A stretch of 64,000 nucleotides of DNA, from NCBI GenBank assembly GCA_041660065.1, contig JBAZXC010000002.1:240768-304767 (forward strand), given 5' to 3'. This DNA comes from Parcubacteria group bacterium. Lineage in GTDB: Bacteria; Patescibacteriota; Minisyncoccia; Moranbacterales; GCA-2747515. Position 1 is the first letter of the stretch. Every line of letters starts with the position of its first letter. Under the pieces are notes generated by a model. The model worked only from the letters and a program-made list of their open reading frames with translations, did no database searches and was not told the origin of the DNA. The translations under genes and the position numbers were made by a program. This document shows positions 12,911 through 32,544 of this stretch, piece by piece.

Positions 12911-12973
12911 CCACTGAATGCGCTAAAATATGATAACATTCCCATTGCCTAATTTCATTACAAATATATTTAT

Positions 12974-13381
12974 ATGACACAACAAATAAAGAAAAACGAA
13001 AAGAAGAAGTATCGCGTGAAACGTTCTCGTGCAGGCTTGGGGCTTTTTGCCGTTGAAAAAATCACAAAAGGTGAGTTTATCATCGAATACACCGGCGAAA
13101 AAATTTCACACGAAGAAGCAGACCGTCGCGGTGGACGATACCTTTTTATACTTACAGAAGAAATCGTTTTGGACGGAAAAGGACGAGAACACACCGCCCG
13201 CTATATCAATCATGCCTGCACACCAAACGCGGAAGCGGTAATTGAGGATGATGAACACGTAATGATCTATGCGACCAGAGACATTTTGCCACACGAAGAA
13301 ATTACATATGATTACGGAACTCAATATGTGGAAGAATTGATCAAAGAAGAAGGATGCCGATGTGCTGGGTGTTGTATATAG
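12974..13381 (+). CDS. SET-domain protein (putative lysine methyltransferase)
   Basis: GLGLFA...EYTGE...RYINHACTPNAEAV...EEITYDYG SET signature. C-terminal CRCAGCC post-SET Cys cluster. Confidence 0.85.
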   Translation: MTQQIKKNEKKKYRVKRSRAGLGLFAVEKITKGEFIIEYTGEKISHEEADRRGGRYLFILTEEIVLDGKGREHTARYINHACTPNAEAVIEDDEHVMIYATRDILPHEEITYDYGTQYVEELIKEEGCRCAGCCI

Positions 13382-14611: not shown

Positions 14612-15337
14612 CTATATGGTTTTTTTCATCTCGTCAATCCATCCAATCAATTCAAAAAACAACCGTACATTTGTGATCCTTACATGAATAGTGCCATGAG
14701 GTATTGTATTTTTAGCTCTTGTATTCTTACTATTATTTTTTACATGACTGACTTTCATAAAATTTTTTAGAGGTATTTTAGTTATTTTATGCCAATAATC
14801 CATAGATTTTTCTGCGTCAACATTCTTATGCGCAATGATTTGTATCTTCATGTTCTCTTTTGTAATATGAAGAAATTTTTCAAAAAAACGGATCATTATA
14901 GTAATCATTGCAGGATCTGAATTGGCAAAATCAATGCTTTTCCATTTACTGCCATAGGCACCTTTTTTATAGCCCTCTGACCAATACATTGCGACACCTG
15001 CAATAAATAAAGGGTCTTTAGTGTATTTATGGTATTGCAAAGCTGCAAAATCTCGTATCTTCTGGTGTTCCTCTTGAGATTTTTGAGTTTGTTGTCGATT
15101 CCTTTTTATGAGAGCTTTAACACTAGTATCATGTACACGCTTATGTATTTTTTCTTGCGCGAGTTGAGATAATGAAACATCTTTTAACCATGTGCTCAAA
15201 GTACTTTTTGGAATAGTCATTTTCTGAGATATTTGATTATAACTATATCCATTTCTGCGCAATTTTATAGCATCATCTTTGTCTTTTCTCATAAAATAAA
15301 TAGAACCTATAATACTATCAATGTACCATAGGTTCAT
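14612..15337 (-). CDS. Hypothetical HTH-domain protein; possible mobile-element/homing-endonuclease-like gene adjacent to the intron-containing tRNA
   Basis: 241-aa, AT-rich. N-terminal HTH (GYSYNQISQKMTIPKSTLSTWL, IS30/resolvase-like). Start lies 14 nt after the tRNA-Phe 3' end. No clear LAGLIDADG, GIY-YIG or HNH motif. Confidence 0.45.
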   Translation of the reverse strand: MNLWYIDSIIGSIYFMRKDKDDAIKLRRNGYSYNQISQKMTIPKSTLSTWLKDVSLSQLAQEKIHKRVHDTSVKALIKRNRQQTQKSQEEHQKIRDFAALQYHKYTKDPLFIAGVAMYWSEGYKKGAYGSKWKSIDFANSDPAMITIMIRFFEKFLHITKENMKIQIIAHKNVDAEKSMDYWHKITKIPLKNFMKVSHVKNNSKNTRAKNTIPHGTIHVRITNVRLFFELIGWIDEMKKTI

Positions 15338-15351
15338 ATTTATAACAATGA

Positions 15352-15662
15352 TGGTGCCGAGGGAGAGAATCGGACTCTCGACACAAGGATTTTCCTTATA
15401 CTGTCTTATGTTTCCATAAGGATTGGACTATATCATTCCCGCTGAGCGGGATTGGGCGCTATTTGCAGGATTATTGTTGGGACTCACCTGCTAGTCTCTA
15501 CTCCTTCCTTAACACTTTATACCCATTAAGGCTTGGATCGGGATTGTCATAATTCTATAAGAACCGTAGATTTCCCCGAATTCACCCAATTTTTCTCACT
15601 CTATATTGCTATAGAGGGGACCGAAAATTCAGTCCTTTGCTCTACCACTGAGCTACCTCGGC
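15352..15662 (-). tRNA. tRNA-Phe (GAA) interrupted by a group I intron (exons 15631..15662 and 15352..15394; CCA encoded)
   Basis: 5' exon GCCGAGGTAGCTCAGTGGTAGAGCAAAGGACT. 3' exon GAAAATCCTTGTGTCGAGAGTCCGATTCTCTCCCTCGGCACCA. Spliced product folds into a canonical cloverleaf with anticodon loop CTGAAAA. Confidence 0.8.
15395..15630 (-). ncRNA. Group I self-splicing intron (236 nt) in the tRNA-Phe anticodon loop, inserted between U33 and G34
   Basis: 5' splice site follows U, with a U.G pair in P1 (exon GGACU pairs with intron IGS GGUCC). The intron ends in omega-G (..UAUAAG|GAAAA). P2 hairpin CUCUAUA-gcaa-UAUAGAG. P3/P4 core AAAUUGGGUGAAUUCGGGGAAAUCUACGGUUC closely resembles the cyanobacterial tRNA-Leu intron core AAAUUGCGGGAAAGGGGUCAACAGCCGUUC. 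P7-like GAGACUA ... UAGUCC. Confidence 0.8.
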
Positions 15663-15683
15663 TCACTCAAATATTCATTGTTG

Positions 15684-15757: not shown

Positions 15758-15978
15758 TTTTTATTGAATAGATCCACCAACTTATTTCATATGAATGTTG
15801 TTTTTTCTTTTATATAATGAATTTTTGACAAAAAACTTCTGTCATTCTGAACTTGTTTCAGAATCTCAAAACTATGGCTTATGTAGATGCTGAAACAAGT
15901 TCAGCATGACATAGATATTAAATGAGATCAACAAATATCATTGTACAATATTTTTTTATTTCTTCCAACCTCTTCTCG

Positions 15979-16062
15979 TGCCCAGAGCGGGACTTGAACC
16001 CGCACACTCCAAAGGAGTCTAGGCCCTCAACCTAGTGCGTATACCAATTCCGCCATCTGGGC
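15979..16062 (-). tRNA. tRNA-Leu (GAG), type II with long variable arm
   Basis: GCCCAGA..anticodon loop TTGAGGG..variable arm ACTCCTTTGGAGTGT..TTCAAGT..TCTGGGC-A. Confidence 0.8.
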
Positions 16063-16101
16063 ATGCATATCACTTTTTTGCAAAAATGATATGTTCCAAC
16101 T

Positions 16102-16554
16102 TTAATTTGTCACTTCTTCCGCTACTTCCGCCTTTTCTGCTTCAACTACTTCTTCCACAACCTCTTCTTTTGCTACTGGATTTTCAACTTCTTTTTTCAC
16201 AATGTCTTTTGCATCTGTATATTTAAAACGCAATGCCTTTGCCACTTTGTCTCGTACATAATACAATTTTGCCTTGCGTACTTTTGCACGCTTTATCAAC
16301 TCGATCTTATCGATAAATGGAGAAAACATCGGCACCACGATCTCAACACCCACACCATTGGACACTTTGCGCACAGTAACAGTTGGAGAACTGCTTTGGC
16401 GTCCTTTGATCGCGATGATCATGCCCTCAAAGATCTGGACACGCTCTTTTTCACCCTCTTTGATCCTGCGATACACCTTGACGACATCTCCCGCGTAAAA
16501 ATCAATCGTATCTTTGCGTTGCGTTTTATTGAACGCGATTACTTCACTTCGCAT
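16102..16554 (-). CDS. rplS: 50S ribosomal protein L19 with an acidic C-terminal extension
   Basis: VQIFEGMIIAIKGRQ...TVRKVSNGVGVE...VRKAKLYYVRDK matches the L19 core. About 35 extra C-terminal residues (EEVVEEVVEAEKAEVAEEV). Confidence 0.9.
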   Translation of the reverse strand: MRSEVIAFNKTQRKDTIDFYAGDVVKVYRRIKEGEKERVQIFEGMIIAIKGRQSSSPTVTVRKVSNGVGVEIVVPMFSPFIDKIELIKRAKVRKAKLYYVRDKVAKALRFKYTDAKDIVKKEVENPVAKEEVVEEVVEAEKAEVAEEVTN

Positions 16555-16731
16555 AAAAATATATAGTTAAAAATAAGATGGAAAATCGGTTGATTTTTTG
16601 TTTCAGAACACAAAAAATGCCTGCCATTACAGCCATAGCGCACCCCTTGTAAAACCTTTCACCATCATAGAGGAAAAAGCATTTTTCGTCAATAGTTCCC
16701 TGAATAAAGTAAAAACCGCCGGATCGTGATC

Positions 16732-17037
16732 CTAGCGGTTTAGTTCCTGGAGTGCTTGCAAGACGATTTCTCTTGCAGAGCATTTCGTCAAAAAATCAAT
16801 GTGTAGCCACCATTCTCCTTGTGGAGAAAAGATGTTTTGTGAAAGAGAGATAAAAATACTCTCATCTGAAAATTTTCTTTTTTCGTGAAGAAGCGTACGC
16901 TCCATCACCTCTTCCACATTCGCATTACCCTGCGTGTACACGCGGTAGATCCTTGCGCCAATCCTTGCAAGGATATATTCCGCATTGCGTTCCGTCGTAC
17001 GAATGCACACGCCCTGTGCATTAAATTCGATGATCAT
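16732..17037 (-). CDS. Hypothetical protein upstream of rplS
   Basis: 101-aa ORF. No motif recognised. Confidence 0.35.
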   Translation of the reverse strand: MIIEFNAQGVCIRTTERNAEYILARIGARIYRVYTQGNANVEEVMERTLLHEKRKFSDESIFISLSQNIFSPQGEWWLHIDFLTKCSAREIVLQALQELNR

Positions 17038-17155
17038 ATGATCCTCCTGTCCAAAATTAAAGAACGTAAATTCATAACAGGATATTATAGATCATAATTC
17101 TGATTTTGTCAAGAGCTGGCTTCATGTTTCACGAAACCAGCTCTTATGCCTTTTA

Positions 17156-17434
17156 TCAAACAAAAAGACTGGTCAGAACCGTAGTGATTACGCCTCCAAC
17201 AAATAATCCGATTGTTCCGGAGATTGCAGGACAGGGATCATTGTGATGTCTACTCCATGTGAAAAACCTCCACCCACACGCAAGCGCAACGATCACCACG
17301 ACACCTATCCGTATTACATCTCGATCTGCGATCCATTCCATTCTTTCCTCCTCTGTTTTCTTGACGTATGATTTCTCCTTTATATTGCCCACGGTACCAT
17401 CAAAAAACAAAATAATCAAGGCTTCATCAATCAT
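17156..17434 (-). CDS. Small membrane protein, hypothetical
   Basis: 92 aa with two hydrophobic helices. Overlaps the upstream gene by 8 nt. Confidence 0.4.
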   Translation of the reverse strand: MIDEALIILFFDGTVGNIKEKSYVKKTEEERMEWIADRDVIRIGVVVIVALACGWRFFTWSRHHNDPCPAISGTIGLFVGGVITTVLTSLFV

Positions 17435-18398
17435 TGATGATTTCCTCCATCTTTACATTGATCACGCCCGCGCCAAGCGATGCGATCTTTTCAAATGCCA
17501 CTTTATCCAAGTCGATGATACGGCCGGCAACAAAAGGCCCACGATCATTGATACGCACGATCACAGACTTTCCATTCTCTTGATTGGTCACGCGCGCATA
17601 CGAGCCGATCGGCATCCATGGATTTGCCGCACTGAGCGTCCCTGTGTGAGCATACCATGAGCATGCTCCCGTATGCTTCTTACCCACCACAACCTTTGTA
17701 CCCTGCACCACTATCTCGGTCACAGGCTCTTTGGTCACGGTTTCGCTTTTGACATCGCGCGCCACTTCTTCCCCATTATGATATGCCACTTCATAGATAA
17801 TTTCTTTTGCACCATTTTCTCCTTTTTGCTTTGTAAAACGCTTGAGAAAATTCACCGTGTCATCTTCATTTTCTTCCGTTTTAAATGGGATCTTTTTTGT
17901 CACGGTTTCTTCTTTGATGATCACGCGGATGATCGTCGCCTCCATGTCACCATAGACCACCACATCTTTTGCCGGTTTGACGATATCATCCTTTGCGATC
18001 GTCACACCGCCACGAATTATCGCTTGTAACAAATTATCACGAAATGTGTGGATCTCCTTCTTGTTATCATCAACTTCCACCGTGACTACATGATCACGAT
18101 CGATCGTGATCACATCATCATCAAACACCGCCATGTCCCGCGCAGGAAAAACACGATCACGCTCTCCGATCGACGGATCATAATATGCCAGCACATCCGC
18201 AACAGTCTTGGCGGGCACATCACGCAAATCGGTCTTGCGACCATCATCATTGATCACAATATGATGCATGTCGGACGATTGCACAAATTGATGCGCCGGA
18301 CGCAGAAAAAGTGCCCCTGCAATCACGCCGACAATACCGCACAAAACAACCCCAAAAGCCACTTTTTGAATCAATTTTCTCCGCACCCGTTTATGCAT
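17427..18398 (-). CDS. RlpA-like (DPBB) domain protein with N-terminal membrane anchor
   Basis: C-terminal GACSWYAHTGTLSAANPWMPIGSYARVTNQENGKSVIVRINDRGPFVAGRIIDL is the RlpA double-psi beta-barrel signature. N-terminal TM. Likely start is the internal MHKRV. Confidence 0.8.
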   Translation of the reverse strand: MHKRVRRKLIQKVAFGVVLCGIVGVIAGALFLRPAHQFVQSSDMHHIVINDDGRKTDLRDVPAKTVADVLAYYDPSIGERDRVFPARDMAVFDDDVITIDRDHVVTVEVDDNKKEIHTFRDNLLQAIIRGGVTIAKDDIVKPAKDVVVYGDMEATIIRVIIKEETVTKKIPFKTEENEDDTVNFLKRFTKQKGENGAKEIIYEVAYHNGEEVARDVKSETVTKEPVTEIVVQGTKVVVGKKHTGACSWYAHTGTLSAANPWMPIGSYARVTNQENGKSVIVRINDRGPFVAGRIIDLDKVAFEKIASLGAGVINVKMEEIIND

Positions 18399-18443
18399 AC
18401 TCCCACTATTATATATGAATACAACAAAAAAATATATCCACAT

Positions 18444-18512
18444 GCTTTAAAATTTGCAGAAAACATGGTACATTTGCACTGTATGTTAGTAGGTGTTTTG
18501 CAACACCAAAAG
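18444..18512. repeat. Repeat A copy 1: ~70-bp promoter-like element, about 94% identical to 21558..21626
   Basis: GCTTTAAAATTTGCAGAAAACATGGTACATTTGCACTGTATGTTAGTAGGTGTTTTGCAACACCAAAAG. Three direct ATTTGCA/TTTTGCA motifs plus a GGTGTT-ttgc-AACACC hairpin. Confidence 0.7.
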
Positions 18513-18681
18513 CTCACTTAATACGCGTATTTGAACACATTATCTACCCACAAATTTGCACAATGACCGGTTATGGCAAATGTCGCTTCGTTCATCTTTA
18601 TTTATTTTATAGAGAAAAAATAAGGCGTTTTCCTCACTATGCTACGAAAGCTGTTTATATTTAATTAATACGTGAAGTATT

Positions 18682-19869
18682 ATGAACGAGATGCAGATAA
18701 ATAATACACTAAAAACTTTGGTAAAGTTGATTGTCAAGAATAAACAAAATATTATTGATAGCAACCAACAAGACACCTCTGCTTGTTCAAATATTGATGA
18801 ATCAATGCTTGATAGATTAAGAATTGATGAAAATAAAATTTCAGGGATGATCGAATCTATTAATCAGACAGCAAAACTGGCAAATCCAAAAGGGAGAACT
18901 CTGTATACCTACCAACATGAAAACGGTTTAAAGATAGAGAATAAAACAGTTCCGTTTGGTAAAATTCTGATCATTTATGAGTCAAGGCCTGATGTCACAA
19001 TTGAAGCCACTGCTACCGCTTTTAAAGCCGGAAATAAAGTTTTATTGAAAGGAGGCAAAGAATCCAGGAATACTAATATTTTTTTGGTAAAACTCTGGCA
19101 AGAAGCCCTATTTCTAAATGGATTGGATAAAAATCATATAATCTACCTAGACATCAACAGAAAAAAAATGCAAGATGTGATTAGGGACAACAGCTATCAA
19201 ATTGATTTGATTATCCCAAGAGGAGGGGAGGGGCTTATTAACTTTGTTACCCAAAATACCAATATTCCTGTAATAATAAGTGGCAGGGGAAATAATTTTT
19301 TGTATGTAGACAAAGAATCCGATTTTGATATGGCTATCAAAATTATACTAAATGGGAAACAACGAGTGAGTGTATGCAATGCCTTGGATAAAGTTCTCAT
19401 TAATCAAGATGTGCCTGATATAAAATCAAAAATATTGAGCTTGGTCAACAGCCTAAAAACTAACAATATTGAAATATTAGGATCTAAAAATATATGTGAA
19501 TTGAATAATCAAATACAAGAAATTGAGGATGAATCAATGTTCGGTGAAGAATTTTTGTCTTTCAAAATATTGCTAATCTTAGTAAATAATATCGATGAAG
19601 CCATGGGCATGACAAACAAATACTCTGGTGGGCATTCAGCAAGTATAATCACTACAAACAATAAAACTGCAGAAAAATTTCAAAATGAAGTCGATTGTGC
19701 GGCTGTTTATCACAATGCTTCAACGAGATTTACCGATGGTGGTCAATTCGGATTTGGTGCTGAAATAGCAATAAGCACACAAAAATTACATTTTAGAGGT
19801 CCCATTGGAATAAATCAATTGGTCACGAACAAATGGTTTATTTATGGTAAGGGACAAATACGAAATTAA
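18682..19869 (+). CDS. proA: Gamma-glutamyl phosphate reductase (glutamate-5-semialdehyde dehydrogenase)
   Basis: 395 aa. Aldehyde dehydrogenase-fold ProA pattern (ESRPDVT...FKAGN.VLLKGGKES ... GNNFLYVD ... VCNALDKVLI ... HSASIIT). Very AT-rich codon usage. Confidence 0.85.
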   Translation: MNEMQINNTLKTLVKLIVKNKQNIIDSNQQDTSACSNIDESMLDRLRIDENKISGMIESINQTAKLANPKGRTLYTYQHENGLKIENKTVPFGKILIIYESRPDVTIEATATAFKAGNKVLLKGGKESRNTNIFLVKLWQEALFLNGLDKNHIIYLDINRKKMQDVIRDNSYQIDLIIPRGGEGLINFVTQNTNIPVIISGRGNNFLYVDKESDFDMAIKIILNGKQRVSVCNALDKVLINQDVPDIKSKILSLVNSLKTNNIEILGSKNICELNNQIQEIEDESMFGEEFLSFKILLILVNNIDEAMGMTNKYSGGHSASIITTNNKTAEKFQNEVDCAAVYHNASTRFTDGGQFGFGAEIAISTQKLHFRGPIGINQLVTNKWFIYGKGQIRN

Positions 19870-19894
19870 TCTTTTATCTAACAGATGTTAACTT

Positions 19895-20656
19895 ATGAAA
19901 AAGAAATTAATCCTGAAAATTGGGACATCAACCCTTACAGCTGGCACAAATAGAATTTCATACGCAAAAATTGAAGATGTCGCAAGGCAAATAATTGCGC
20001 TAAAAAATGATTATGATTTTGTTTTGGTTTCTTCCGGAGCCATTGCAACCGCAAAACAATTTGTTGAAATTAACGGATACAATAAACAAGTAGACTCAAA
20101 ACAGGCAATGTCCGCGATAGGACAGCCCAAATTAATGAAAATCTATGATGAAATTTTCAGTAGCTTTGGACTAAATATTGCACAATGCCTTATGACTTAT
20201 AGAGATTTTGAAGATAAAACAGCCAAAATAAACACCAAAAATACGATCAATAAACTTTTAGAGCACAACTATATCCCTATCATAAATGAAAATGATACAG
20301 TGGCGATTGAAGAAATTGTTTTGGGAGATAATGATAAATTATCAGCTCTTGTCGCAACAATTACGGATGCTGATTTATTGATCATCGCATCAGATATTGA
20401 TGGATTATATGACCAAAATCCGCACCTTAACAAAGAAGCAAAGTTCATCAAAGAGGTAAGGGATTTAAAACATGTTGCCTCTTTTGCTAAAGAAAAAAAA
20501 TCTGATCTCGGGACAGGAGGAATGACATCTAAAATTCAAGCTGCAGAAATTTGTAAAGAAAATAAAATCGAGATGTGGATTGTTAATGGAGGGAAAAACA
20601 ATTTTTTGATTGATGCTCTTCATGATAAAATACCTTTTACAAAATTTAGGTTTTAA
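19895..20656 (+). CDS. proB: Glutamate 5-kinase (no PUA domain)
   Basis: LILKIGTSTLT...VLVSSGAIATAKQ amino-acid kinase motifs. 253 aa. Confidence 0.85.
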   Translation: MKKKLILKIGTSTLTAGTNRISYAKIEDVARQIIALKNDYDFVLVSSGAIATAKQFVEINGYNKQVDSKQAMSAIGQPKLMKIYDEIFSSFGLNIAQCLMTYRDFEDKTAKINTKNTINKLLEHNYIPIINENDTVAIEEIVLGDNDKLSALVATITDADLLIIASDIDGLYDQNPHLNKEAKFIKEVRDLKHVASFAKEKKSDLGTGGMTSKIQAAEICKENKIEMWIVNGGKNNFLIDALHDKIPFTKFRF

Positions 20657-20659
20657 AAT

Positions 20660-21433
20660 ATGAAACACGGTTTTATAGGATTTGGAAACTTAGCAAAAGC
20701 AGTTCATCAAGGTTTAAAAAGCAATAAGGAACATTCTTTTGCCTATACATCCAAAAGTAATTCATTCGCGGAAATTCAATCATTTGAAAATCTATCGCAA
20801 TTAACTTCTTTTGCGGATGTAATTTGGTTATGTGTCAAGCCTCAAAATCTTACAGAGGTATTGACGCAACTTAAAAACATTGACCTTAAAAATAAGATTA
20901 TTATATCTCCTGTCGCAGGAAAGAGCATTGGTGTTATTGAAAATTATTTGGGTAAAAATGTAACCATAGTAAGAATTATGCCAAATCTTGCTATTGCATA
21001 CAAAAAATCAGTAATAGCATATTGTGCAAATGCGAAACATCACAGGCTTTTAAAATCACTAAAAAAAGATTTATTGACATTGGGTAAAGTAGTGGAATTA
21101 CAGGAAGGACATTATGATTTATTTACTGCAATTTTTGGAAGTGGTCCAGCATTTTTATTAGCAATACTACAAACACTTAAAAATAAAATAAGCGAATTGG
21201 GAATATCAGATCAAGAAGCCAATGATCTACTAATAGAATTGATAATTGGCACTACGACTTATTTTCAAAAAAATTGTACTAAAAAAAGTATTGATGACTT
21301 AATAAAAAACGTTACAAGCAAAGGAGGTACGACAGAGGCTGGATTGAACTATATCAAGAAAAATAATCTAAATAAGTTGTTTGAAAATGTTATCATTGAG
21401 GCCCAAAAAAAATCTAAAGAGATGAATACGTAA
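20660..21433 (+). CDS. proC: Pyrroline-5-carboxylate reductase
   Basis: N-terminal Rossmann IGFGNLAKAV and a C-terminal P5CR dimerisation region (GSGPAFLL...TSKGGTTEAGL). Confidence 0.85.
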   Translation: MKHGFIGFGNLAKAVHQGLKSNKEHSFAYTSKSNSFAEIQSFENLSQLTSFADVIWLCVKPQNLTEVLTQLKNIDLKNKIIISPVAGKSIGVIENYLGKNVTIVRIMPNLAIAYKKSVIAYCANAKHHRLLKSLKKDLLTLGKVVELQEGHYDLFTAIFGSGPAFLLAILQTLKNKISELGISDQEANDLLIELIIGTTTYFQKNCTKKSIDDLIKNVTSKGGTTEAGLNYIKKNNLNKLFENVIIEAQKKSKEMNT

Positions 21434-21446
21434 GGAATTTTTGACC

Positions 21447-21538
21447 TAGCAGGAGCAGGTTTGTAACCTGCTCCTCTTTTTTTAAAAAAAGAAAAGCTCT
21501 CCTGTAGATGCCAATGGAGAATTTAGATAAAAAAATAC
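21447..21538. repeat. Repeat T copy 1: ~90-bp terminator module (bidirectional terminator hairpin plus second hairpin), duplicated at 24457..24548
   Basis: AGGAGCAGGTTTGTAACCTGCTCCT followed by T and A runs, then AAAAGCTCTCCTG...CAATGGAGAATTTAGATAAAAAAA. Confidence 0.75.
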
Positions 21539-21557
21539 CCATAAAATATGTATACGT

Positions 21558-21626
21558 GCTTTAAAATTTGCAGAAAACATGCTACATTTGCACTGTGTGT
21601 TAATAGGTGTTTTGCAACACCAAAAG
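21558..21626. repeat. Repeat A copy 2 (promoter-like element)
   Basis: GCTTTAAAATTTGCAGAAAACATGCTACATTTGCACTGTGTGTTAATAGGTGTTTTGCAACACCAAAAG. Confidence 0.7.
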
Positions 21627-21693
21627 TTCGCGTAACATACAAATTTTGGCTTTTATACGATTGAAGTTCACTTAATAACCAGTTATGAAAAAT

Positions 21694-21715
21694 AATTTTG
21701 GCCACAATTTTTTAT
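21694..21715. repeat. Left arm of a 22-bp perfect inverted repeat flanking the oxidoreductase gene
   Basis: AATTTTGGCCACAATTTTTTAT is the exact reverse complement of 22961..22982. Confidence 0.8.
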
Positions 21716-21735
21716 TTTTTTAATTCAATACATTT

Positions 21736-22953
21736 ATGTTAAAGATAGCTCTGTTCGGTTGTGGAGGTTTTGCTAAAAATCACATTAAGGAGCTGTCAAA
21801 GCGAGACGATGTAATTGTGCAATATTTTATAGACCCATCAGCTGAAAATAGAAATTCCTTGGGAAATATTTATAATACTGAAAAAGACATCGTTCCATCA
21901 GGATTTGATAGTTTGGATGAATTTCTTTCTTCCAACCCAGAATTTGACGCGGCTATTATCGTTTCTCCGCCAAAAACACATTTTGAAATAGCCTCAGCTA
22001 TAATAAAAATGGGGAAATCAGTTTATGTTGAGAAGCCATTTACAGTCGATACAGAAGAAGCAAAAAAGCTTTGTCGGCAGGCAAAAGAAAAAAATGTTGA
22101 AATTGAGATTGGCGCTAATAGATGCGTGTTTCCAGCTTACAGAGCAGCGGCCAAAGCATTACGAGAAGGAAGAATTGGAGATTATAAGGCAGTATCTATG
22201 TATTATAGACATAACTGGGAAGGAAACACACAAAATAATTGGAGGCAAAACTCTTCTGAGCCAGCTGCCGGACTTCTCGCCGACCATAGCCCCCATTACA
22301 GTCATTTTCTATTTACTGACTTAGGATTTAGGCCTAACGAAATTAGACACATGGGAACTAGATTTAATGAGCATGGAGTCGATGTTGACATTTGTTATGG
22401 AATGATGGATGAAGCTGGAAGAGCTGCTTATGTTGTTATGGATGGATCACCTTCCGATGATCACAGAGAAGAAGTGATTAAAATTTATGGAAGTGAAGGA
22501 ATTATTAAAATAAGATTTGAAGGCAAATCCAGTAGCGCCTATATCGAAAAGGATGGCAAGGAGGAAAAAATTGAGATTGATAGCGCTCTTGAAGAAATAA
22601 AATCATTGGGAATAAAGGATTTTAAAAGCCATCCTGCCTTGATACATAATTTCGTTGCCTTATTAAATGGCGAGGTGCAAAAAAATGCAAATCCAGGCAG
22701 AGAAGGAATTATGCCAATTTATTTAACAGAATTAGTTGAGAAATCAAGAGGAAAAACGAAAGAAGATTCATTATCAAAAGAAGAATTACAAGAACTTTCC
22801 GAACAAGTTAATGATAATGGCGAATTGGATATCGAAAAAATGAAAGAGTTTTTTAATAGAGGCAAAGAGATGAAAGTCGATAGCAGTATTATTGGAAATG
22901 AGTCGCAAGAAAATACAACACGAAATGAAATAAATAGAAGATTTTTAAGATAA
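21736..22953 (+). CDS. Gfo/Idh/MocA-family NAD(P)-dependent oxidoreductase with acidic C-terminal extension
   Basis: N-terminal Rossmann IALFGCGGFAKNH. Family-consensus EKP motif (VYVEKPFTVDTEEAKKL). Confidence 0.8.
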   Translation: MLKIALFGCGGFAKNHIKELSKRDDVIVQYFIDPSAENRNSLGNIYNTEKDIVPSGFDSLDEFLSSNPEFDAAIIVSPPKTHFEIASAIIKMGKSVYVEKPFTVDTEEAKKLCRQAKEKNVEIEIGANRCVFPAYRAAAKALREGRIGDYKAVSMYYRHNWEGNTQNNWRQNSSEPAAGLLADHSPHYSHFLFTDLGFRPNEIRHMGTRFNEHGVDVDICYGMMDEAGRAAYVVMDGSPSDDHREEVIKIYGSEGIIKIRFEGKSSSAYIEKDGKEEKIEIDSALEEIKSLGIKDFKSHPALIHNFVALLNGEVQKNANPGREGIMPIYLTELVEKSRGKTKEDSLSKEELQELSEQVNDNGELDIEKMKEFFNRGKEMKVDSSIIGNESQENTTRNEINRRFLR

Positions 22954-22960
22954 ATAGGTT

Positions 22961-22982
22961 ATAAAAAATTGTGGCCAAAATT
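22961..22982. repeat. Right arm of the 22-bp perfect inverted repeat
   Basis: ATAAAAAATTGTGGCCAAAATT. Confidence 0.8.
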
Positions 22983-23025
22983 ACATCCGATAACACCAAG
23001 TATCTGGCTCCTCTAAAAAACAATT

Positions 23026-23892
23026 ATGAATTTTGAAATCAAAAATACGGCAGAAGTTCCAAAGGATGTTGAGACTGAAAAAAAGAAACTGTTCGCTCAG
23101 ACAACGGTCTACATCAATGCTGGCGGAAGAGGAACGCGGTTAGAATCAATTTTTCCAAAAGGTCCATCAGGTGTGACCAAAGCCCTCATTGATTTTAATG
23201 GCAAGCCAATGGTCAAAAATCACACAGACCTTTTGTCTGAATTGGGTTTTAAAAATATTATTGTCGGCGCCGGTGATCATTTGGATATCAAAGAATACTA
23301 TGCCGGACAAGAAAATGAAAGACTACGGGTTGCAAACACAGAAACGCAAGAAGACACTGGCGGTGATTTGATCAAGGCTATACGCGAAACGGAAAATAAT
23401 GGAAAAAATGTCCTCGTCGAAAATGTTGATACCGTGTTGTATGTAAAAAATTTAGTGGATCTGTTGGCGCAACACGAAAAATCAGATGCCACTGCGACAA
23501 TTGTATTAACCACAAAAAAAGGTGTCCCAAATGAAGAAGCTTTTTTTGTTGATAAAAATGGCAGGGTGATTTTTAGCAGAGAAGCAAGACAAGAGCATGC
23601 TTTGGTGGAACCAGAACAATGGACGGGCTTTAAGGCAAGCAGTACCGGCACCGTCATTTTTAAAACAGATTTTTTGCGATCATACGATTGGCAACCGGGA
23701 CAAGAGCCGTTATCAGCGTACAGAGATCTGATCCCTGAATTGATCAAGCGAGGAGAATTGTTTGCTTATAATAATGAAAATAATCTTTTTACAGACACCG
23801 GCACACCAGAAAAATATCATCAAATCAAAAGACATGAAAAAAAATTATTCGGGGCATTGGAAAAAAAGTACCTAGATCAAGATAAAAAATAA
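23026..23892 (+). CDS. Sugar-phosphate nucleotidyltransferase (NTP_transferase family)
   Basis: YINAGGRGTRLESIFPKGPSGVTKALIDFNGKPMV: G-x-G-T-R-L signature of nucleotidyl-sugar pyrophosphorylases. Confidence 0.8.
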   Translation: MNFEIKNTAEVPKDVETEKKKLFAQTTVYINAGGRGTRLESIFPKGPSGVTKALIDFNGKPMVKNHTDLLSELGFKNIIVGAGDHLDIKEYYAGQENERLRVANTETQEDTGGDLIKAIRETENNGKNVLVENVDTVLYVKNLVDLLAQHEKSDATATIVLTTKKGVPNEEAFFVDKNGRVIFSREARQEHALVEPEQWTGFKASSTGTVIFKTDFLRSYDWQPGQEPLSAYRDLIPELIKRGELFAYNNENNLFTDTGTPEKYHQIKRHEKKLFGALEKKYLDQDKK

Positions 23893-23896
23893 AGTT

Positions 23897-24433
23897 ATGG
23901 CAAACAAAATCAAAAAATGGGAAGAGCTTTCACGTGAAATTGTTTTTCAAAAGTATAGTCGAAAAATTGAAAAGGTTGTTTTTCGCATGCCTGATGGGAA
24001 AGAAAACGAATTTTATATCAAAAAAGAAGGACCCTCTGTAGGAATATTGGCATTAACCAAAAACAACGAGGCTATTTTAGTAAAACAATTTCGCCCAGGG
24101 CCAAATGAGATTTTAAATGAATTGCCTGGCGGTTATGTGGACAAAGACGAAACCCCGGAACAAGCTGCCGAAAGAGAATTGCTTGAAGAAACAGGCTACA
24201 GAGGCAAGGCCACATTAGTTACGGAAGCTTTTGATTGTGCATATTCAACCATGCGACGTTATTGCGTTGTCGTGACTGAATGCGAAAAAGTTACTGAACA
24301 AAAATTAGATCAGACTGAATTTATGGAAGTGATATTATCTTCATTGGAAGATTTTAAGATTATGTTGCGAACTGGAAAAAATACAGATATTGAAATTGGA
24401 TTTTTAGGACTCGACTATTTGAAATTATTATAA
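23897..24433 (+). CDS. NUDIX hydrolase
   Basis: Nudix box GGYVDKDETPEQAAERELLEETGY. Confidence 0.85.
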   Translation: MANKIKKWEELSREIVFQKYSRKIEKVVFRMPDGKENEFYIKKEGPSVGILALTKNNEAILVKQFRPGPNEILNELPGGYVDKDETPEQAAERELLEETGYRGKATLVTEAFDCAYSTMRRYCVVVTECEKVTEQKLDQTEFMEVILSSLEDFKIMLRTGKNTDIEIGFLGLDYLKLL

Positions 24434-24456
24434 AAATCACACTTTGTAAAAGACTT

Positions 24457-24548
24457 CATCAGGAGCAGGTTTGTAACCTGCTCCTTCATTTTTTATAAAA
24501 AAAGAAAAACTCTCCTGCACGTGTCAATGGAGAATTTAAATAAAAAAA
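24457..24548. repeat. Repeat T copy 2 (terminator module)
   Basis: AGGAGCAGGTTTGTAACCTGCTCCT hairpin followed by T and A runs, then AAAAACTCTCCTG...CAATGGAGAATTTAAATAAAAAAA. Confidence 0.75.
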
Positions 24549-24599: not shown

Positions 24600-24806
24600 T
24601 CACCGTTCAAACTCCTCAATGGCTCTTTTGACAGTGTACTGAGCGCTGAGATTATTGATTATCACAATTTTATCCAAATATGCACTTGCAAATTGAAACA
24701 TGTGATGTATATCAGGAATGACCGTGTCCATCGTAACTTCTTTCTCGTCAACCCCCAGTTGTCTTGCTGTAGATTTTATCACATAATCCACCACCGTTGT
24801 ATTACT
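24600..24806 (-). CDS. Hypothetical small protein
   Basis: Strong SD AAAAAGGAGGatgtcaATG selects the MSNTTVV start. About 68 aa. No motif recognised. Confidence 0.5.
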   Translation of the reverse strand, partial: SNTTVVDYVIKSTARQLGVDEKEVTMDTVIPDIHHMFQFASAYLDKIVIINNLSAQYTVKRAIEEFER

Positions 24807-24957
24807 CATTGACATCCTCCTTTTTGATAAAATACATTTCATTTAACAGAAATTCAGAGATCGTACATGATTTCAACACTATCATCCTGTAAAAAGAACT
24901 TCCAGATAGTATACATCGTTTCAGCAAGAGGTCAACAACACATTTCAGCGAATTCTT

Positions 24958-26484
24958 CTATTTCGGGCGATATTGCAATGCTTCGGCGATGTGTTTGACT
25001 GTGATATTTTCCTCTCCTTCCAAGTCCGCGATCGTGCGGGCGAGTTTGATCATGCGGTAGTATGCACGAGCGCTGAGGTCCAGTCTTTCTGCCGCGTCAC
25101 GCAAAAGTTTTTTAGACGGTGCGTCTAGCACACAGTGCTTTTTAAGCATGCGTTGATCCATTTCTGCATTGATAGCACCTGTTGTCGCAAATCGCTTGTG
25201 TTGCATCAATCGTGCACGCTCCACGCGTTTTCTGATATGCGTGCTTTCTTCACTGTAGTCTTCCCCGTCCAACTTATTGACCGCGATACGTGGCACGTCC
25301 ACATGCATATCGATGCGATCCAGGATCGGCCCGGAGATCTTTTGTGTATAACGGATCACTTGTGACGGCGTGCATGTACATTCTTTTTGTGGATCAGTCG
25401 CAAATCCGCACGGGCACGGATTCATCGCCGCCACGAGGATAAAATTTGCCGGAAACGTAACGGATGATTTGGCACGTGCGATCGTCACGATGCCATCTTC
25501 CAATGGCTGACGCAAATTTTCCAGTACGGCACGCGGAAATTCAGCAAACTCATCGAGAAAAAGCACCCCGCGATGCGCCAGCGTGATCTCTCCCGGCTTG
25601 GGATTTGTGCCACCACCGATGAGCGATACTGCTGACGAACTGTGATGCGGCGAACGAAACTGCCTCAATGTGATCAATTGTTGATTGCCGGAAAGCAATC
25701 CTGCTATAGAATAAATCTTTGTAATATCGAGAATTTCTTTTTTTGACAAGCGTGGCAGGATCGTGACAAATGTCTTGGCAAGCAACGTCTTGCCGGAGCC
25801 AGGTGGTCCGTGAAAGATCACATTATGTCCACCGGCGGCGGCAATTTCCAATGCGCGTTTTGCATGTTCGTGTCCTTTGATATATTTGAAATCATATGAA
25901 CCGATCACTGTCTCATCATCACTGACGTCGACATCAACTCTCTGTGCCGGAGCAATGATTTCCCGTCCACTCAAATGCATCACCAACTGACGCAGATCAT
26001 GCACAGGGATCACATCGATCCCGTCCACAGCTGTTGCTTCTTGTACGTTTTTTTCCGGCACATAAATCTCCGCAAAGCCTTGATCTTTGGCAAAAATCGT
26101 GATCGGCAACACACCATTGATCGCACGCACACTACCGTCCAATGCCAATTCACCGATAAACATTTTATTGTCTGTATTGCACACAAGCTGTCCTGTCGCA
26201 GACAAAAACCCGATCGCAATCGGCACATCATAGATTGGACTGGATTTTTGCAGATCGGCCGGTGCCAGATTGACCGTAATGCGACCACACTGGTGGGGTG
26301 GCTTGAAACCGCTATTTTTTACCGCACTGGATACGCGATCACGAGACTCTTTGACTGCTGTGTCTGGCAGTCCCACGAGAGTAAAGTTATGCAATCCACT
26401 GCTAAGCACGTCCACTTCGATCTCCACGATCGCTCCCGCAAGTCCGATCGTTGCTGCAGAAATAATTTTTGATGGCATGAGCAA
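24958..26484 (-). CDS. YifB/ComM-family Mg-chelatase-like AAA+ ATPase
   Basis: 508 aa. Lon-like N-terminal domain. Walker A GPPGSGKT. Sensor/arginine-finger region ...GVLFLDEFAEF... Confidence 0.9.
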   Translation of the reverse strand: MLMPSKIISAATIGLAGAIVEIEVDVLSSGLHNFTLVGLPDTAVKESRDRVSSAVKNSGFKPPHQCGRITVNLAPADLQKSSPIYDVPIAIGFLSATGQLVCNTDNKMFIGELALDGSVRAINGVLPITIFAKDQGFAEIYVPEKNVQEATAVDGIDVIPVHDLRQLVMHLSGREIIAPAQRVDVDVSDDETVIGSYDFKYIKGHEHAKRALEIAAAGGHNVIFHGPPGSGKTLLAKTFVTILPRLSKKEILDITKIYSIAGLLSGNQQLITLRQFRSPHHSSSAVSLIGGGTNPKPGEITLAHRGVLFLDEFAEFPRAVLENLRQPLEDGIVTIARAKSSVTFPANFILVAAMNPCPCGFATDPQKECTCTPSQVIRYTQKISGPILDRIDMHVDVPRIAVNKLDGEDYSEESTHIRKRVERARLMQHKRFATTGAINAEMDQRMLKKHCVLDAPSKKLLRDAAERLDLSARAYYRMIKLARTIADLEGEENITVKHIAEALQYRPK

Positions 26485-26546
26485 AATGTAAACAAATTAC
26501 ACAAACATAGTTTTCTATCATATTGCGGAGCCCGGCAAAAGTCAAT

Positions 26547-26981
26547 TTATGACTTTCGCATCGTCTGCCAAAGCAAGAAACCTGCGCCAACAGTTATAAG
26601 CGCATCCGCAAAGTTAAAAGAAGAAATATTCAAAAACGGCATATAATCGATCACACAACCATATCGTATGCGATCGATCACATTGCCGATTGCCCCCGCA
26701 AAAATAAGGACGAATGCTATTTGTATGATAAATCGTGCCTTCATCATTGTGCGCCAGTACATGCTCAAAGCAACAATGATGACTAGCCACAAAATAATAA
26801 AAAAGATTTGGGGGAGTTGCACACTAAAAGCTACTCCTCGATTGCACAAATACGCCACACGTCCGACAACAAACACTTTGATCACTTGATCCACAATGAC
26901 CAAAAAAAACAAAACACCGATCCCGCAGAAAAAACTGCGAAATCGATGCCATTGCATTTCTCGTATCTTATGCGCGAACAT
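26547..26981 (-). CDS. lspA: Lipoprotein signal peptidase (signal peptidase II)
   Basis: Conserved NRGVAFS and VIDYMPFLNISSFNFADALI boxes in a four-TM topology. Confidence 0.9.
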   Translation of the reverse strand: MFAHKIREMQWHRFRSFFCGIGVLFFLVIVDQVIKVFVVGRVAYLCNRGVAFSVQLPQIFFIILWLVIIVALSMYWRTMMKARFIIQIAFVLIFAGAIGNVIDRIRYGCVIDYMPFLNISSFNFADALITVGAGFLLWQTMRKS

Positions 26982-27321
26982 TTGTGCGTGCTGCAGGATA
27001 AGCTTTCAATCGATCGAGATTGATCTCTTCTCCTGTTTCTTCATCGGTGCCGTACGTGCCTTTTTCCATTTTTTCCAACGCATCAATCACATCCTTCAAT
27101 TGTGTTTCCAGAGATTGTTCCACTGCGAGATTATCTACATACTGCTCTACTTCTGTGGCATTTTCTTCATCATGCTCGCCCAAATTCTCAGAAAAAGTCG
27201 TCTCGTAGTCTCCTTTCTCATTTTGCTTTTTTCCCAGCCGTGCCAATTCACCATCCAATTGCGCTTTTTCTGCAATCAGCATTTCTTTCAATTCTTGCAT
27301 CGTTTTATCATCAATTGCCAT
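26968..27321 (-). CDS. DksA/TraR-like protein lacking the four zinc-finger cysteines
   Basis: Coiled-coil N-terminus with acidic tip. C-terminal YGTDEETGEEINLDRLKAYPAARTNV aligns to the DksA C4 finger (YGxCExCGxEI...RLxAxPxAxxCxxC), with all four Cys replaced by Thr/Asp/Val. Confidence 0.6.
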   Translation of the reverse strand: MAIDDKTMQELKEMLIAEKAQLDGELARLGKKQNEKGDYETTFSENLGEHDEENATEVEQYVDNLAVEQSLETQLKDVIDALEKMEKGTYGTDEETGEEINLDRLKAYPAARTNVRA

Positions 27322-27456
27322 ATTTCTTTAGTTTAAAGTTTAAAGTTTATAAAGTTTCAGCCAACAGCTGATTTGACTTTGACGGAAAAAGTATATCATT
27401 CCTTTCCGTTTTTAACCCCATAACACATGTAGTGTATCAAATCAAAGAAAAACTGT

Positions 27457-27858
27457 CTAGAAATAGATATTTTTTATGTGTGTAACATTATGCACTTTTC
27501 CATCTTTGATGATCACAGAGATCGCATCCATACGCCAATTTTTTTGCCACAGATCAAAAGATTTGACATAACATTCTGCCACACGTTGCATTTTGCGTAA
27601 TTTGCTTTGCGTGATTTGCTCTTCGGGCAAAACGAAATCTTGTACATGATCCACGACACGCGTTTTTACCTCCACAAAAACGATCTCGCCATCTTTTGCC
27701 TGCGCCACAATGTCGATCTCGCCCAATCTTTTCCCTTTGAAGTTATACCAATTTTTATGCAAAATTTTGTATCCCTGTTTTTTGAGATATTTTACAGCAA
27801 GATCCTCACCCAGTGTACCCACAGATTTTTTTTCCTTTCTCCACAAAAACATCACCAT
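27457..27858 (-). CDS. YraN-family (UPF0102) endonuclease
   Basis: LGEDLAVKYLKKQGYKILHKN...GEIDIVAQAKDGEIVFVEVKTR. Confidence 0.85.
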   Translation of the reverse strand: MVMFLWRKEKKSVGTLGEDLAVKYLKKQGYKILHKNWYNFKGKRLGEIDIVAQAKDGEIVFVEVKTRVVDHVQDFVLPEEQITQSKLRKMQRVAECYVKSFDLWQKNWRMDAISVIIKDGKVHNVTHIKNIYF

Positions 27859-27881
27859 TTACCTTTTAGAAAATCACCATC

Positions 27882-28226
27882 TCACAGTAATTCTTGCCAT
27901 TCATCAGGATCTTCTCTGCGACATATATAATATTCTCGTTGCAAATATGCCAGGTCTTCTTTTGCCCCATTCAATATTTTGTCGCTCACATTCTTTTCGT
28001 CTTTTTGTGCCAAATCGATCATGATGGCCAATGTAGTAAAATAATTGTCCAATCTCACACACACATCCACATCCCGCTTTCTCCTTCTGGCAATCTCTTC
28101 GCTATCAGAGAATTCAACAGCACAATCGCGGACAAACATTTCCGCAAAGAATGACGGCACGCCTATTGCATCGCGACTGATTACACTACAATCACATATC
28201 TTATAGGGAAGAACCTGCTTTTTCAT
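27882..28226 (-). CDS. Hypothetical protein
   Basis: 114 aa. No recognised motif. Confidence 0.35.
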   Translation of the reverse strand: MKKQVLPYKICDCSVISRDAIGVPSFFAEMFVRDCAVEFSDSEEIARRRKRDVDVCVRLDNYFTTLAIMIDLAQKDEKNVSDKILNGAKEDLAYLQREYYICRREDPDEWQELL

Positions 28227-28240
28227 ATTATTATTTATTA

Positions 28241-28966
28241 CTATTTAATGATCTTATAAGAATCTTTTGCAATGATGATGTGATCCAATAATTCTATGCC
28301 CAAAATTTTTCCCGCCTCCACCAGCTGTTTTGTAATAGCAATATCGCTTTCTGACGGCGTTGGATCACCGGACGGATGATTGTGCGCAACAATGACTGCC
28401 GCGGCAGAATACTCGATCGCCGGCTTAAAAACCTCCCGCGGATGCACAACATTTGCTGTTAAACTACCGACAGAAATAGTTTCATCATGGATCACTTTGA
28501 AATGGCTATTGAGATAAATGCCCCGAAAGTGTTCTTTGGGCAAACGTCCGATCTCCTTCAGATATTCAAATGCTTCTTTCGCTGTGCGAATTTGCGCCAA
28601 TCCATTTTCATTTTTTTGAAAAAAGCGCCTGCCCAATTCAAACGTAGCAACGATCTGACACGCTTTTGCCAATGGAATGTCTAGACCACCGTTGATCTTT
28701 TTTGGATTTTTGTTGTTGGCAAGTGTCTTTTCTCCATATTCTTTTAAGATTCTTTCCGACATTACAAAAACCTCTTCCTTTTTTGTCCCTGTCCCCAAAA
28801 CAACAGCCAACAACTCCACACATGAAAGCGCCTCGACGCCATCGCTTAATAATTTTTCACGTGGCTTATCCTCCGGCAACATGTCTCTGATCTTGAGAAC
28901 ATATTTTTTTTCCTGAGAATCTTCCATGATCATATCCTGATCTTTTAGTGTGTATTTTTTCATCAA
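28241..28966 (-). CDS. radC: RadC-family JAB/MPN domain protein (UPF0758)
   Basis: HhH N-terminal region. JAMM motif HNHPSGDPTPSESD. Confidence 0.9.
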   Translation of the reverse strand: MMKKYTLKDQDMIMEDSQEKKYVLKIRDMLPEDKPREKLLSDGVEALSCVELLAVVLGTGTKKEEVFVMSERILKEYGEKTLANNKNPKKINGGLDIPLAKACQIVATFELGRRFFQKNENGLAQIRTAKEAFEYLKEIGRLPKEHFRGIYLNSHFKVIHDETISVGSLTANVVHPREVFKPAIEYSAAAVIVAHNHPSGDPTPSESDIAITKQLVEAGKILGIELLDHIIIAKDSYKIIK

Positions 28967-29098
28967 AAAATTTTATTTTAAAATAGGCGCATTCATTTTA
29001 ACAATCAAACTATCCCCAGTCAATTATTCGTTCATATTGCGTTAATGTTTCTCGCCACATTATTTTTCAAACAAAAAAATACGTGAATTATTTCATTA

Positions 29099-29890
29099 TC
29101 AATGGTCATCAGCGACGTGATGTACATCCTCCGCGTTGACCCACAAACCAGAAAACATGGCGGCCATTGTTTCGTGTATTTCACGCGAATGAATAAGCAC
29201 TGCTGAAATATTTTTCATAGATGATATGAACGCAACTTTATCATCAAATATGATAATCACCGATTGAAATTTGCCATGCATGATCTTTGGGAGGTAGCGC
29301 GGATTCCTGTCGTGAACGTCCTCAAGTGTCAATGCCTGTGCATCTGGCGTATGTTCCCAAAGTGATCGTGCTTTGATGCGGTTTTCTTTTCGCGTTTTAA
29401 TATAATAACGGGCATAATTACTATCAAATTCACTGAAAAAATTTTTCTTTGGTGCAATAATGCTCCATTCTCGACTGCGACAATACAGCGCTTCTTCTAC
29501 AACCAGCTTAATACCTTCACTGCCTTCAAAATGGGATACTGTGAAATCCTCTTCCTTTTGTTTGCTACGATCCATCAAAAGCGGAATGATCGTGTCAACT
29601 TCTTTTTTCTTTTCTTGTAACAATTTGATCTCTCGATCAAGAAATTTTTTGATATTCTCAGGAGATGTCATAGTGAACAACAATTTTGCACCTGTACCGC
29701 TCTCACGTTTTGACACCAATCCTTTTTGAGTCAAGGTATCGAGCGCATGATAGATCGTCGTTCGATTGATCCGTGTTGTTTTTTCCAACTCTTTCACACT
29801 GATTGTTTCATAAGAGAGTCCAACAAGATAAATATCAATTTCTGTATCAGTAAGACCCATTTCATGAAGAATATTTTTAATTTGAGACAT
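29099..29890 (-). CDS. TrmB-family transcriptional regulator
   Basis: N-terminal wHTH: LGLTDTEIDIYLVGLSYETISVKELEKTTRINRTTIYHALDTLTQKGLV. Confidence 0.75.
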   Translation of the reverse strand: MSQIKNILHEMGLTDTEIDIYLVGLSYETISVKELEKTTRINRTTIYHALDTLTQKGLVSKRESGTGAKLLFTMTSPENIKKFLDREIKLLQEKKKEVDTIIPLLMDRSKQKEEDFTVSHFEGSEGIKLVVEEALYCRSREWSIIAPKKNFFSEFDSNYARYYIKTRKENRIKARSLWEHTPDAQALTLEDVHDRNPRYLPKIMHGKFQSVIIIFDDKVAFISSMKNISAVLIHSREIHETMAAMFSGLWVNAEDVHHVADDH

Positions 29891-30018
29891 ATTATTAAAA
29901 ATTTCACTTATGCATCAATTATAGCCATATTTACATTAGTGTCAACATATCATTGTATGTCATTATCCTTTATTACTCTAGTATTTTTATATTGTCATTT
30001 TTTTGTTATAAACACTTA

Positions 30019-32535: not shown

Positions 32536-32544
32536 TCAAATATC

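Follow-up and report, generated by a model that had tools for sequence, protein, structure and literature searches.

Two foreign operons probably stacked within duplicated native flanks at a variable locus of a Parcubacteria group genome

We analysed a stretch of 64,000 nucleotides (nt) from a Parcubacteria group bacterium (assembly GCA_041660065.1, contig JBAZXC010000002.1, positions 240,768 to 304,767), hereafter the window, and focused on a cluster of six plus-strand genes at 18.4-24.6 kb. The genes surrounding this cluster lie mainly on the minus strand. The six genes fall into two cargos, a proABC operon and a sugar-nucleotide set encoding an oxidoreductase, a nucleotidyltransferase-like protein and a NUDIX hydrolase, each preceded by one copy of a repeat (A1 and A2) and followed by one copy of another (T1 and T2). 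Families were assigned by Pfam and NCBIfam profile searches, with the NCBIfam equivalog cut-offs applied to the pro genes. Comparison loci and stretches from other genomes and metagenomes are labelled by L-numbers (L002, L161, L167 etc.). The locus is organised as follows.

17427..18398, minus strand: left core flank, gene of a G5/DUF348/RlpA-type (DPBB) cell-wall protein (Pfam, NCBIfam), syntenic in L161, L165 and L164
18408-18413: TATAAT -10 box of this RlpA/G5 gene, 9 nt ahead of its ATG
18409..18532: repeat A1, an 81% match to A2, with its core at 18444-18520 and native intergenic DNA on to ~18590
18617..21441, plus strand: cargo 1, the proABC operon including its own 65-nt leader
18682-19869, plus strand: proA (NCBIfam, Pfam)
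19895-20656, plus strand: proB, short, without the PUA domain (NCBIfam, Pfam)
20660-21433, plus strand: proC (NCBIfam, Pfam)
21451..21475, plus strand: hairpin 1 of repeat T1 (terminator scan, fold)
21476..21538, no strand: 3' half of T1, an A/T tract and a weak hairpin 2 (21498-21520), 88% identical to T2
21523..21646, no strand: repeat A2, running on to ~21700 (repeat comparison)
21682-21715 and 22961-22994: left and right 34-nt arms of an inverted repeat around the oxidoreductase gene
21736..24433, plus strand: cargo 2 as a whole
21736-22953, plus strand: Gfo/Idh/MocA oxidoreductase (Pfam, NCBIfam)
23026-23892, plus strand: sugar-1-phosphate nucleotidyltransferase-like protein (Pfam, NCBIfam)
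23897-24433, plus strand: NUDIX hydrolase (Pfam, NCBIfam)
24461..24485, plus strand: hairpin 1 of repeat T2, same sequence as in T1, then a T-run
24486..24548, no strand: 3' half of T2, with hairpin 2 at 24510-24532, native hotspot DNA
24578-24547, minus strand: terminator within the variable region
24600-24842, minus strand: small open reading frame (ORF) without family matches, also in the variable region
24958..26484, minus strand: right core flank, yifB, encoding a YifB-family Mg-chelatase-like AAA ATPase (TIGR00368, 586 bits)

A sequence-only reading of this DNA had named the same six genes (proABC; oxidoreductase, nucleotidyltransferase and NUDIX), and the profile searches confirmed these identities. 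ProA matched NF001221 at 424 bits (cut-off 289), and ProB, in a short form that lacks the PUA domain, matched TIGR01027 at 259 bits (cut-off 186). The match of ProC to TIGR00112 reached 173 bits, under the cut-off of 197, and this protein is also recognised by the Pfam families P5CR_dimer and F420_oxidored. The spacers within proA-proB-proC measure 25 nt and 3 nt, respectively.

The lower GC content that had been claimed for 18.6-24.5 kb was borne out by computation. GC at third codon positions (GC3) is 0.22-0.34 in the six cargo genes and 0.39 ± 0.06 in the 46 other genes of the window (Mann-Whitney p = 2.8e-4). Cargo 1 has a GC content of 0.30-0.33, and cargo 2 a GC3 of 0.26-0.34. Shine-Dalgarno use is uninformative as a marker of foreignness, such motifs occurring at just 9 of 46 host genes. 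Among the profile-searched proteins of the cluster and its flanks, for which Pfam families were listed over 15.9-29.9 kb, there was no integrase or transposase. The nearest tRNA genes lie at 14.3-16.1 kb, with none at the site itself.

The named homologs of the RlpA/G5 protein belong without exception to the candidate phyla radiation (CPR; Moraniibacteriota/Moranbacteria, Parcubacteria group, Patescibacteria group), bacteria that are thought to rely on their hosts for amino acids. The proABC operon is 79.0% identical in nucleotides over 2826 nt to a metagenome-assembled genome (MAG) of a Woesearchaeota archaeon (L167, 5936-8759), whose gene context is archaeal (TYW2, PAN-like AAA, CysRS), and 79.3% identical to L002, a metagenomic contig (9262-12033); L003 matches at 77% over proAB only. 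Homology to L167 and L002 stops at window positions 18617 and 21441. The DNA shared with the proABC homologs in L002, L003 and L167, as well as with the oxidoreductase homologs in L156-L160, amounts to the genes plus 30-65 nt only, and neither A nor T lies beside proABC in those three stretches.

At the protein level, the top ProA matches are 74-75% identical in amino acids (aa), one of them from a Woesearchaeota archaeon, and the named matches at 57-65% are mostly from Bacteroidota. The search found no ProA near 86%, the identity expected of a vertical ortholog, although the samples of the closest relative are in the database. The nearest relatives of ProA, which the sequence-only reading had pointed to as informative, are Woesearchaeota, other CPR and Bacteroidota. 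Because gene lengths and spacers are alike in the window, L002 and L167, with a GC of ~0.33 in all three hosts and a nucleotide identity of ~79%, the sharing of this operon between a CPR bacterium and Woesearchaeota, members of the DPANN archaea (Diapherotrites, Parvarchaeota, Aenigmarchaeota, Nanoarchaeota and Nanohaloarchaeota), points to a relatively recent inter-domain transfer.

The oxidoreductase of cargo 2 belongs to a rare family, with 14 matches from CPR, Micrarchaeota and Aenigmarchaeota (DPANN), and had no relatives in viral_contigs. Its homologs elsewhere adjoin restriction-modification/HNH, conjugation-type or sugar genes, and beside those in L156-L160 none of the nucleotidyltransferase, the NUDIX gene, A or T was found. 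A separate observation concerns the inverted repeat that brackets the oxidoreductase ORF alone: its 34-nt arms are 85% complementary, with a 22-nt perfect core (AATTTTGGCCACAATTTTTTAT), and occur singly beside homologs, L159 and L156 keeping one arm each.

Repeat A had been described as a ~70-bp element with three ATTTGCA repeats that occurs twice. The repeat is real and longer than this, with 81% identity over 124 nt, 91% within an 80-nt core, and weaker similarity reaching ~18590 and ~21700; within it, two exact ATTTGCA boxes are spaced by 20 bp and a third box reads TTTTGCA. Over the window as a whole, ATTTGCA is no more frequent than expected (28 occurrences against 32). Copy searches covered the 64-kb window and found no further copy of A or T in it. 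The A-box pattern had 0 matches in genome_contigs, a collection in which the genome of origin is absent, the pattern of the A core had 0 matches in viral_contigs, and no Rfam family matched A or T. As candidate identities for A we rejected a structured RNA, since shuffled sequences fold as well as A does (z = 0.5 and -0.1), and a sigma-54 promoter, for which the GG/GC spacing, judged by eye, is wrong and the GG is not kept in A2. A Bacteroidota-type promoter (TTTG-N19-21-TAnnTTTG) was likewise rejected: TAcaTTTG is present, yet the -33 TTTG is merely 13 nt off.

Repeats T1 (21447-21538) and T2 (24457-24548) are ~84% identical. Their first hairpin, AGGAGCAGGTTTGTAACCTGCTCCT, is the same at 25 of 25 positions and is followed by a T-run (CTTTTTTT or TCATTTTTT). 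It is built as AGGAGCAGGTT-TGT-AACCTGCTCCT, with an 11-bp stem containing 6 GC pairs and a 3-nt loop, and starts 17 nt past the stop codon of proC and 27 nt past that of the NUDIX gene. This hairpin differs from the AT-rich terminators found elsewhere in the window, and the terminator scan scores it as an intrinsic terminator. In structure it is a textbook intrinsic (rho-independent) terminator, which would be expected to terminate transcription of each operon. The earlier description of T as a "double-hairpin terminator" is reasonable for hairpin 1 and correct about the ~90-bp repeat and, for the weak hairpin 2, unproven. The A/T tract and hairpin 2 may terminate convergent minus-strand transcription from the yifB side, as hairpin potential is kept in L161, with the register shifted.

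The closest relative locus that we found is L161, whose RlpA/G5 protein is 86% identical in amino acids and whose DNA matches the window at 85.6% over 15925-18590 and at 87.6% over 24959-27855. From one core flank to the other, L161 displays RlpA, an ortholog of A, an ORF of 219 aa, a different hairpin and the ortholog of the T 3' half, after which come two small ORFs and then yifB. Between 24549 and 24958 there is no nucleotide homology to L161; it resumes from 24959 onward. In L165 (78%), a lone ORF of 156 aa lies between yifB and RlpA. None of the six cargo genes is present at the orthologous locus of L161, L165 or L164, and the content of the site differs in every relative examined. The cargo of the site is low in GC in all three genomes compared (0.28-0.33).

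The repeats themselves can be followed into L161. The left 35 nt of A1, which hold the core promoter region of the RlpA/G5 gene, are 97% identical to L161 and are not part of A2. Over the core, identity to L161 is 79% for A1 and 84% for A2, and the L161 ortholog continues like the sequence 3' of A2, the 70 nt downstream of A2 (73.5%) being closer to it than those of A1. The 3' halves of T1 and T2 are 88% identical to each other, compared with 71-79% to L161 (78-79% for T1). In L161, an unrelated hairpin comes right after the cargo gene and is followed by the ortholog of the T 3' half, AAAAAAAAGAAAAGCTCTCCTGTAAATATCAGCAGAAGAGCTTTGATAAAAAAG.

Because these orthologs bracket a different gene at the same chromosomal position in L161, the comparison shows A and the 3' half of T to be native edges of a variable hotspot between RlpA/G5 and yifB, not parts of cassettes. 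Moreover, since A1/A2 and T1/T2 are closer to each other than to L161, it shows a bracket A...T that was apparently doubled within this lineage, in direct tandem, with a different foreign low-GC operon in each copy. The bracket periods are 3114 and ~3010 nt, the enclosed genes are unrelated, and T1 passes into A2, tail to head, at ~21523-21545, in an A-run. Simple tandem segmental duplication was considered and rejected: the bracket sequences alone repeat, not the genes within them.

Based on these findings, we postulate, with a probability of roughly 75%, that a chromosomal hotspot of a Moraniibacteria-like CPR genome has here received an accessory islet of two foreign operons, which are stacked in duplicated native flanks. 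The cargo displays the marks of such an islet, namely atypical composition, absence from the locus in close relatives and discordant nearest homologs. The earlier proposal of acquired modular cassettes stands with regard to acquisition (foreign GC3, absence in the closest relatives, scattered homologs) and falls with regard to A and T as modular parts.

The stacking could have come about through recombination of two hotspot alleles, one with proABC and the other with the oxidoreductase set. In such homology-facilitated illegitimate recombination (HFIR), the exchange would have been homologous on one side, within RlpA/A, and illegitimate on the other, at the A-run. Alternatively, a tandem duplication may have been followed by cargo replacement via A and T as homology arms, a route not distinguishable from recombination of alleles. 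The outcome would be two operons with a common setting, a copy of one native upstream region in front of each and one kind of terminator behind.

Several points weigh against this explanation. Orthologs of A and T are known from one sufficiently close relative locus only (L161 and its near-duplicates), and the order of events and the mechanism of recombination are not observable. Gene conversion could inflate the similarity of A1 to A2 and of T1 to T2, and the count of A and T copies spans the 64-kb window, so extra genomic copies are possible. Hairpin 1 is identical at 25 of 25 positions amid surroundings of ~85%, which calls for selection or a separate history, and hairpin 2 is a weak structure in the fold, with a 5-bp stem and a 13-nt loop. 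In addition, the promoter scan called no sigma-70-type site (-35/-10 hexamers, 16-18 nt spacing) on either strand of 18409-18532 or 21523-21646. This last result also leaves the label "promoter-like module", which the sequence-only reading had given to A, without a promoter of this type inside the repeat.

A reading compatible with duplicated native flanks is that A is a functional operator or leader recruited twice, with one regulator binding at the ATTTGCA boxes. The paired exact boxes with a similar third box beside them, the 91% conservation of the core between the copies and a similar AAATTTGCA motif upstream of proA in L002 all speak for such a role. However, the L161 ortholog keeps box 2 alone intact, with box 1 reading ATTTGCT and box 3 TTTCACA, and has lost the small hairpin of A. 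Together with the lack of ATTTGCA enrichment, the unremarkable fold of A and its lack of conservation in relatives at 76-78%, this makes an operator function unlikely.

Hairpin 1 of T leads to a further set of explanations, as its sequence is widely dispersed. Exact copies of its 23-nt core, GGAGCAGGTTTGTAACCTGCTCC, are present in 85 stretches from metagenomes and in 67 from species-representative genomes. These hold 161 instances in 134 distinct contexts, mostly intergenic, and 122 of the 134 are preceded by GCN. The hosts span more than 10 phyla and include Nitrospirota, Thermodesulfobacteriota/Deltaproteobacteria, Chloroflexi, Thiotrichaceae, Bdellovibrionales, Myxococcales, several CPR phyla (among them Moranii-, Sacchari-, Peregrini- and Gracilibacteria) and one Bathyarchaeia MAG. 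A second hairpin lies at most 170 nt away in 77 of the 134 contexts, usually with a reverse-complement loop and a covarying stem, and one MAG (CBDVCR01) carries ~20 copies of the 23-mer inside a longer repeat.

The most recurrent neighbour of the 23-mer is a Y1 HUH (Y1_Tnp) protein of 168-188 aa, found at nine loci with hairpins on both sides. Three of these proteins scored 77.6-86.9 bits against NF047646 (REP-associated tyrosine transposase, RAYT), two of them reaching the cut-off of 80. Between phyla, the RAYT proteins of the family share 51-64% identity; members of the family lie in L004-L155, for example at L115:35-725, L035:258-840 and L099:2785-3370. Repetitive extragenic palindromes (REP), in the form of bacterial interspersed mosaic elements (BIME) or of the REP doublets called REPINs, are a known system with RAYT transposases (PMC3116915, PMC3337134, PMC5581495). 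Because the exact dispersed 23-mer flanks RAYT genes, hairpin 1 of T is, going by its sequence, a REP-type unit. The hairpin family shares with the REP/REPIN-RAYT system a short GC-rich palindrome, an intergenic location and the flanking of RAYT genes. Across the family, a GCR motif usually precedes the palindrome and inverted doublets are frequent; in the window, T1 is preceded by GCA and T2 by TCA.

The family also departs from that system. Both REP units of the window are singlets, and tblastn found no RAYT in the 64 kb. Furthermore, the exact 23-mer spans more than 10 phyla including CPR and one archaeon, whereas classical REPINs are lineage-specific and vertically inherited; a wide distribution is reported for RAYT Group 1 only (PMC5581495). 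The hairpin family had no match in Rfam when A/T and 12 other loci were scanned, and the T hairpin had 0 matches in viral_contigs. A literature search retrieved no paper linking RAYT or REPIN with Patescibacteria. That the 3' half of T might be a degenerate partner REP was ruled out, as this sequence is present in L161, where no REP unit accompanies it. A second role as terminator is common among REPs. This cross-phylum REP/RAYT family that includes CPR is a side lead that may merit a study of its own.

With respect to the islet, the joints might have been made by a RAYT-type HUH transposase with the REP hairpin as its substrate, cargo being inserted directly 5' of the REP by single-strand cut-and-paste. 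The homology of proABC stops at 21441, 7-9 nt short of the REP unit, the homology of T1 and T2 begins at the joint CA/GGAGCAGG, the position of the conserved GCR in the family, and RAYT genes of the hairpin family are present in related Moraniibacteriota (L099), all of which fit such a capture. Nevertheless, the window has no RAYT and no REP doublets, and RAYTs are not known to mobilise passenger genes. The hairpin at this place in L161 is a conventional one, and therefore the joint can be explained by ordinary cargo replacement. We regard capture by a RAYT as very unlikely. A broader version, in which the REP hairpin would be the docking joint of a RAYT-driven system that stacks whole operons 5' of REP units in CPR, DPANN and many groundwater phyla, is highly improbable. 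If true, it would explain both the ~79% nucleotide identity of proABC in CPR and Woesearchaeota and the ending of both cargos a few nucleotides before an identical 25-nt palindrome.

The sequence-only reading had favoured portable modules, with A as promoter and T as terminator travelling together, so that each cassette would have arrived as A-genes-T. The same architecture does occur twice, the cargo is foreign in composition, and the T hairpin comes from a horizontally widespread repeat family. However, in L161 this locus carries orthologs of A and of the T 3' half around a different gene, and the homologs of proABC (L002, L003, L167) and of the oxidoreductase (L156-L160) stand elsewhere without A or T. 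The absence of the A pattern from genome_contigs and viral_contigs and of a sigma-70 promoter from A also disagrees with portability. This model is already largely refuted, and we hold it to be a long shot. The case calls for caution, since what looks like a set of repeated "promoter" and "terminator" modules beside foreign genes may be no more than native flanks in duplicate.

We also weighed whether two strain variants of the locus had been joined into a chimera, as the source is a metagenome-assembled genome and two hotspot alleles with common flanks are prone to mis-assembly. Such an artefact is scarcely credible: a separate Logan assembly (run SRR18595301) reproduces the arrangement at 100% over 13,986 nt, an independent and identical sequence of 14 kb, A1/A2 and T1/T2 differ by 9-16%, and the T1-A2 junction sequence is unique. 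Finally, an integron-like array with T as attC site can be dismissed almost entirely: the uniform orientation of the gene sets and the repeated hairpin element behind each of them resemble such an array, and taxa known for integrons are among the carriers of the hairpin family, but no integrase (IntI) is among the Pfam families listed for 15.9-29.9 kb, the attC R/L boxes (R''/R', RYYYAAC/GTTRRRY) are absent, the T hairpin is a perfect local palindrome in a family whose stems covary within each hairpin and not between halves, the cassettes would be multi-gene operons of three genes each, and the repeats are native locus DNA.

Other features were observed elsewhere in the window. A tRNA-Phe(GAA) gene at 15354-15680 on the minus strand is apparently split by a group I intron (RF00028, 79.6 bits, 15404-15640). 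L161 has an intron-less tRNA-Phe at 12911-12983, and its DNA joins window position 15394 directly to 15628. ARAGORN reported no tRNA-Phe in the window, and the adjoining low-GC ORF (14612-15337, minus strand) has weak helix-turn-helix matches only. The region at 27.9-32.6 kb is missing from L161, which joins 27855 to 32589, and represents another variable islet.

Further along, five to six copies of the palindrome TTGTTCCACGTGGAACAA at 59345-59968 occupy a spacer of 27% GC upstream of the minus-strand genes nrdD/nrdG (56829-58943 and 55906-56613). The cumulative GC skew has its minimum at ~60-61 kb, and the palindromes may represent a replication origin or else a set of nrd operators. Between 48 and 53 kb there are two families of direct repeats, one of 79 nt in three copies (48705-48783, 51536-51614, 52772-52850) and one of 48 nt in two to three copies (50541-50588, 50974-51021). 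A short hairpin motif (CTGTCATTCYGRAC...GAAT) occurs in three copies (15833-15864, 48410-48441, 53153-53184) and may be a small repeat family.

If the islet is as we propose, a complete proABC operon was gained at a defined hotspot, its sequence being shared across the bacteria-archaea divide with another episymbiont lineage. The case would then illustrate how metabolic modules enter reduced genomes without integrases or phages. As in the bacterial proBA-proC pathway, ProA and ProB score above their equivalog cut-offs, ProC is recognisable and the operon is compact. The differences lie in the gene order proA-proB-proC, in the short ProB without PUA, and in the 2.8-kb unit common to a CPR bacterium and a DPANN archaeon at ~79% nucleotide identity.

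The arrangement is reminiscent of duplication by HFIR or unequal crossing-over in its direct repeats, which follow in order, and in a junction that falls in a short A-run common to the T-tail and the A-head. It differs in that the two units carry unrelated genes, and here the event is one that we infer. An islet of horizontal gene transfer in a recombination hotspot is an already known and ordinary kind of event. In such hotspots, conserved core genes flank cargo that is replaced by homologous recombination in the flanks. Our locus agrees with them in its conserved core flanks (RlpA/G5 and yifB), in a low-GC cargo that varies from relative to relative, and in having no integrase or tRNA at the site. 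What sets it apart is that its host is a member of the CPR, that the inner flanks are duplicated in tandem, and that the two cargos are thus stacked rather than exchanged.

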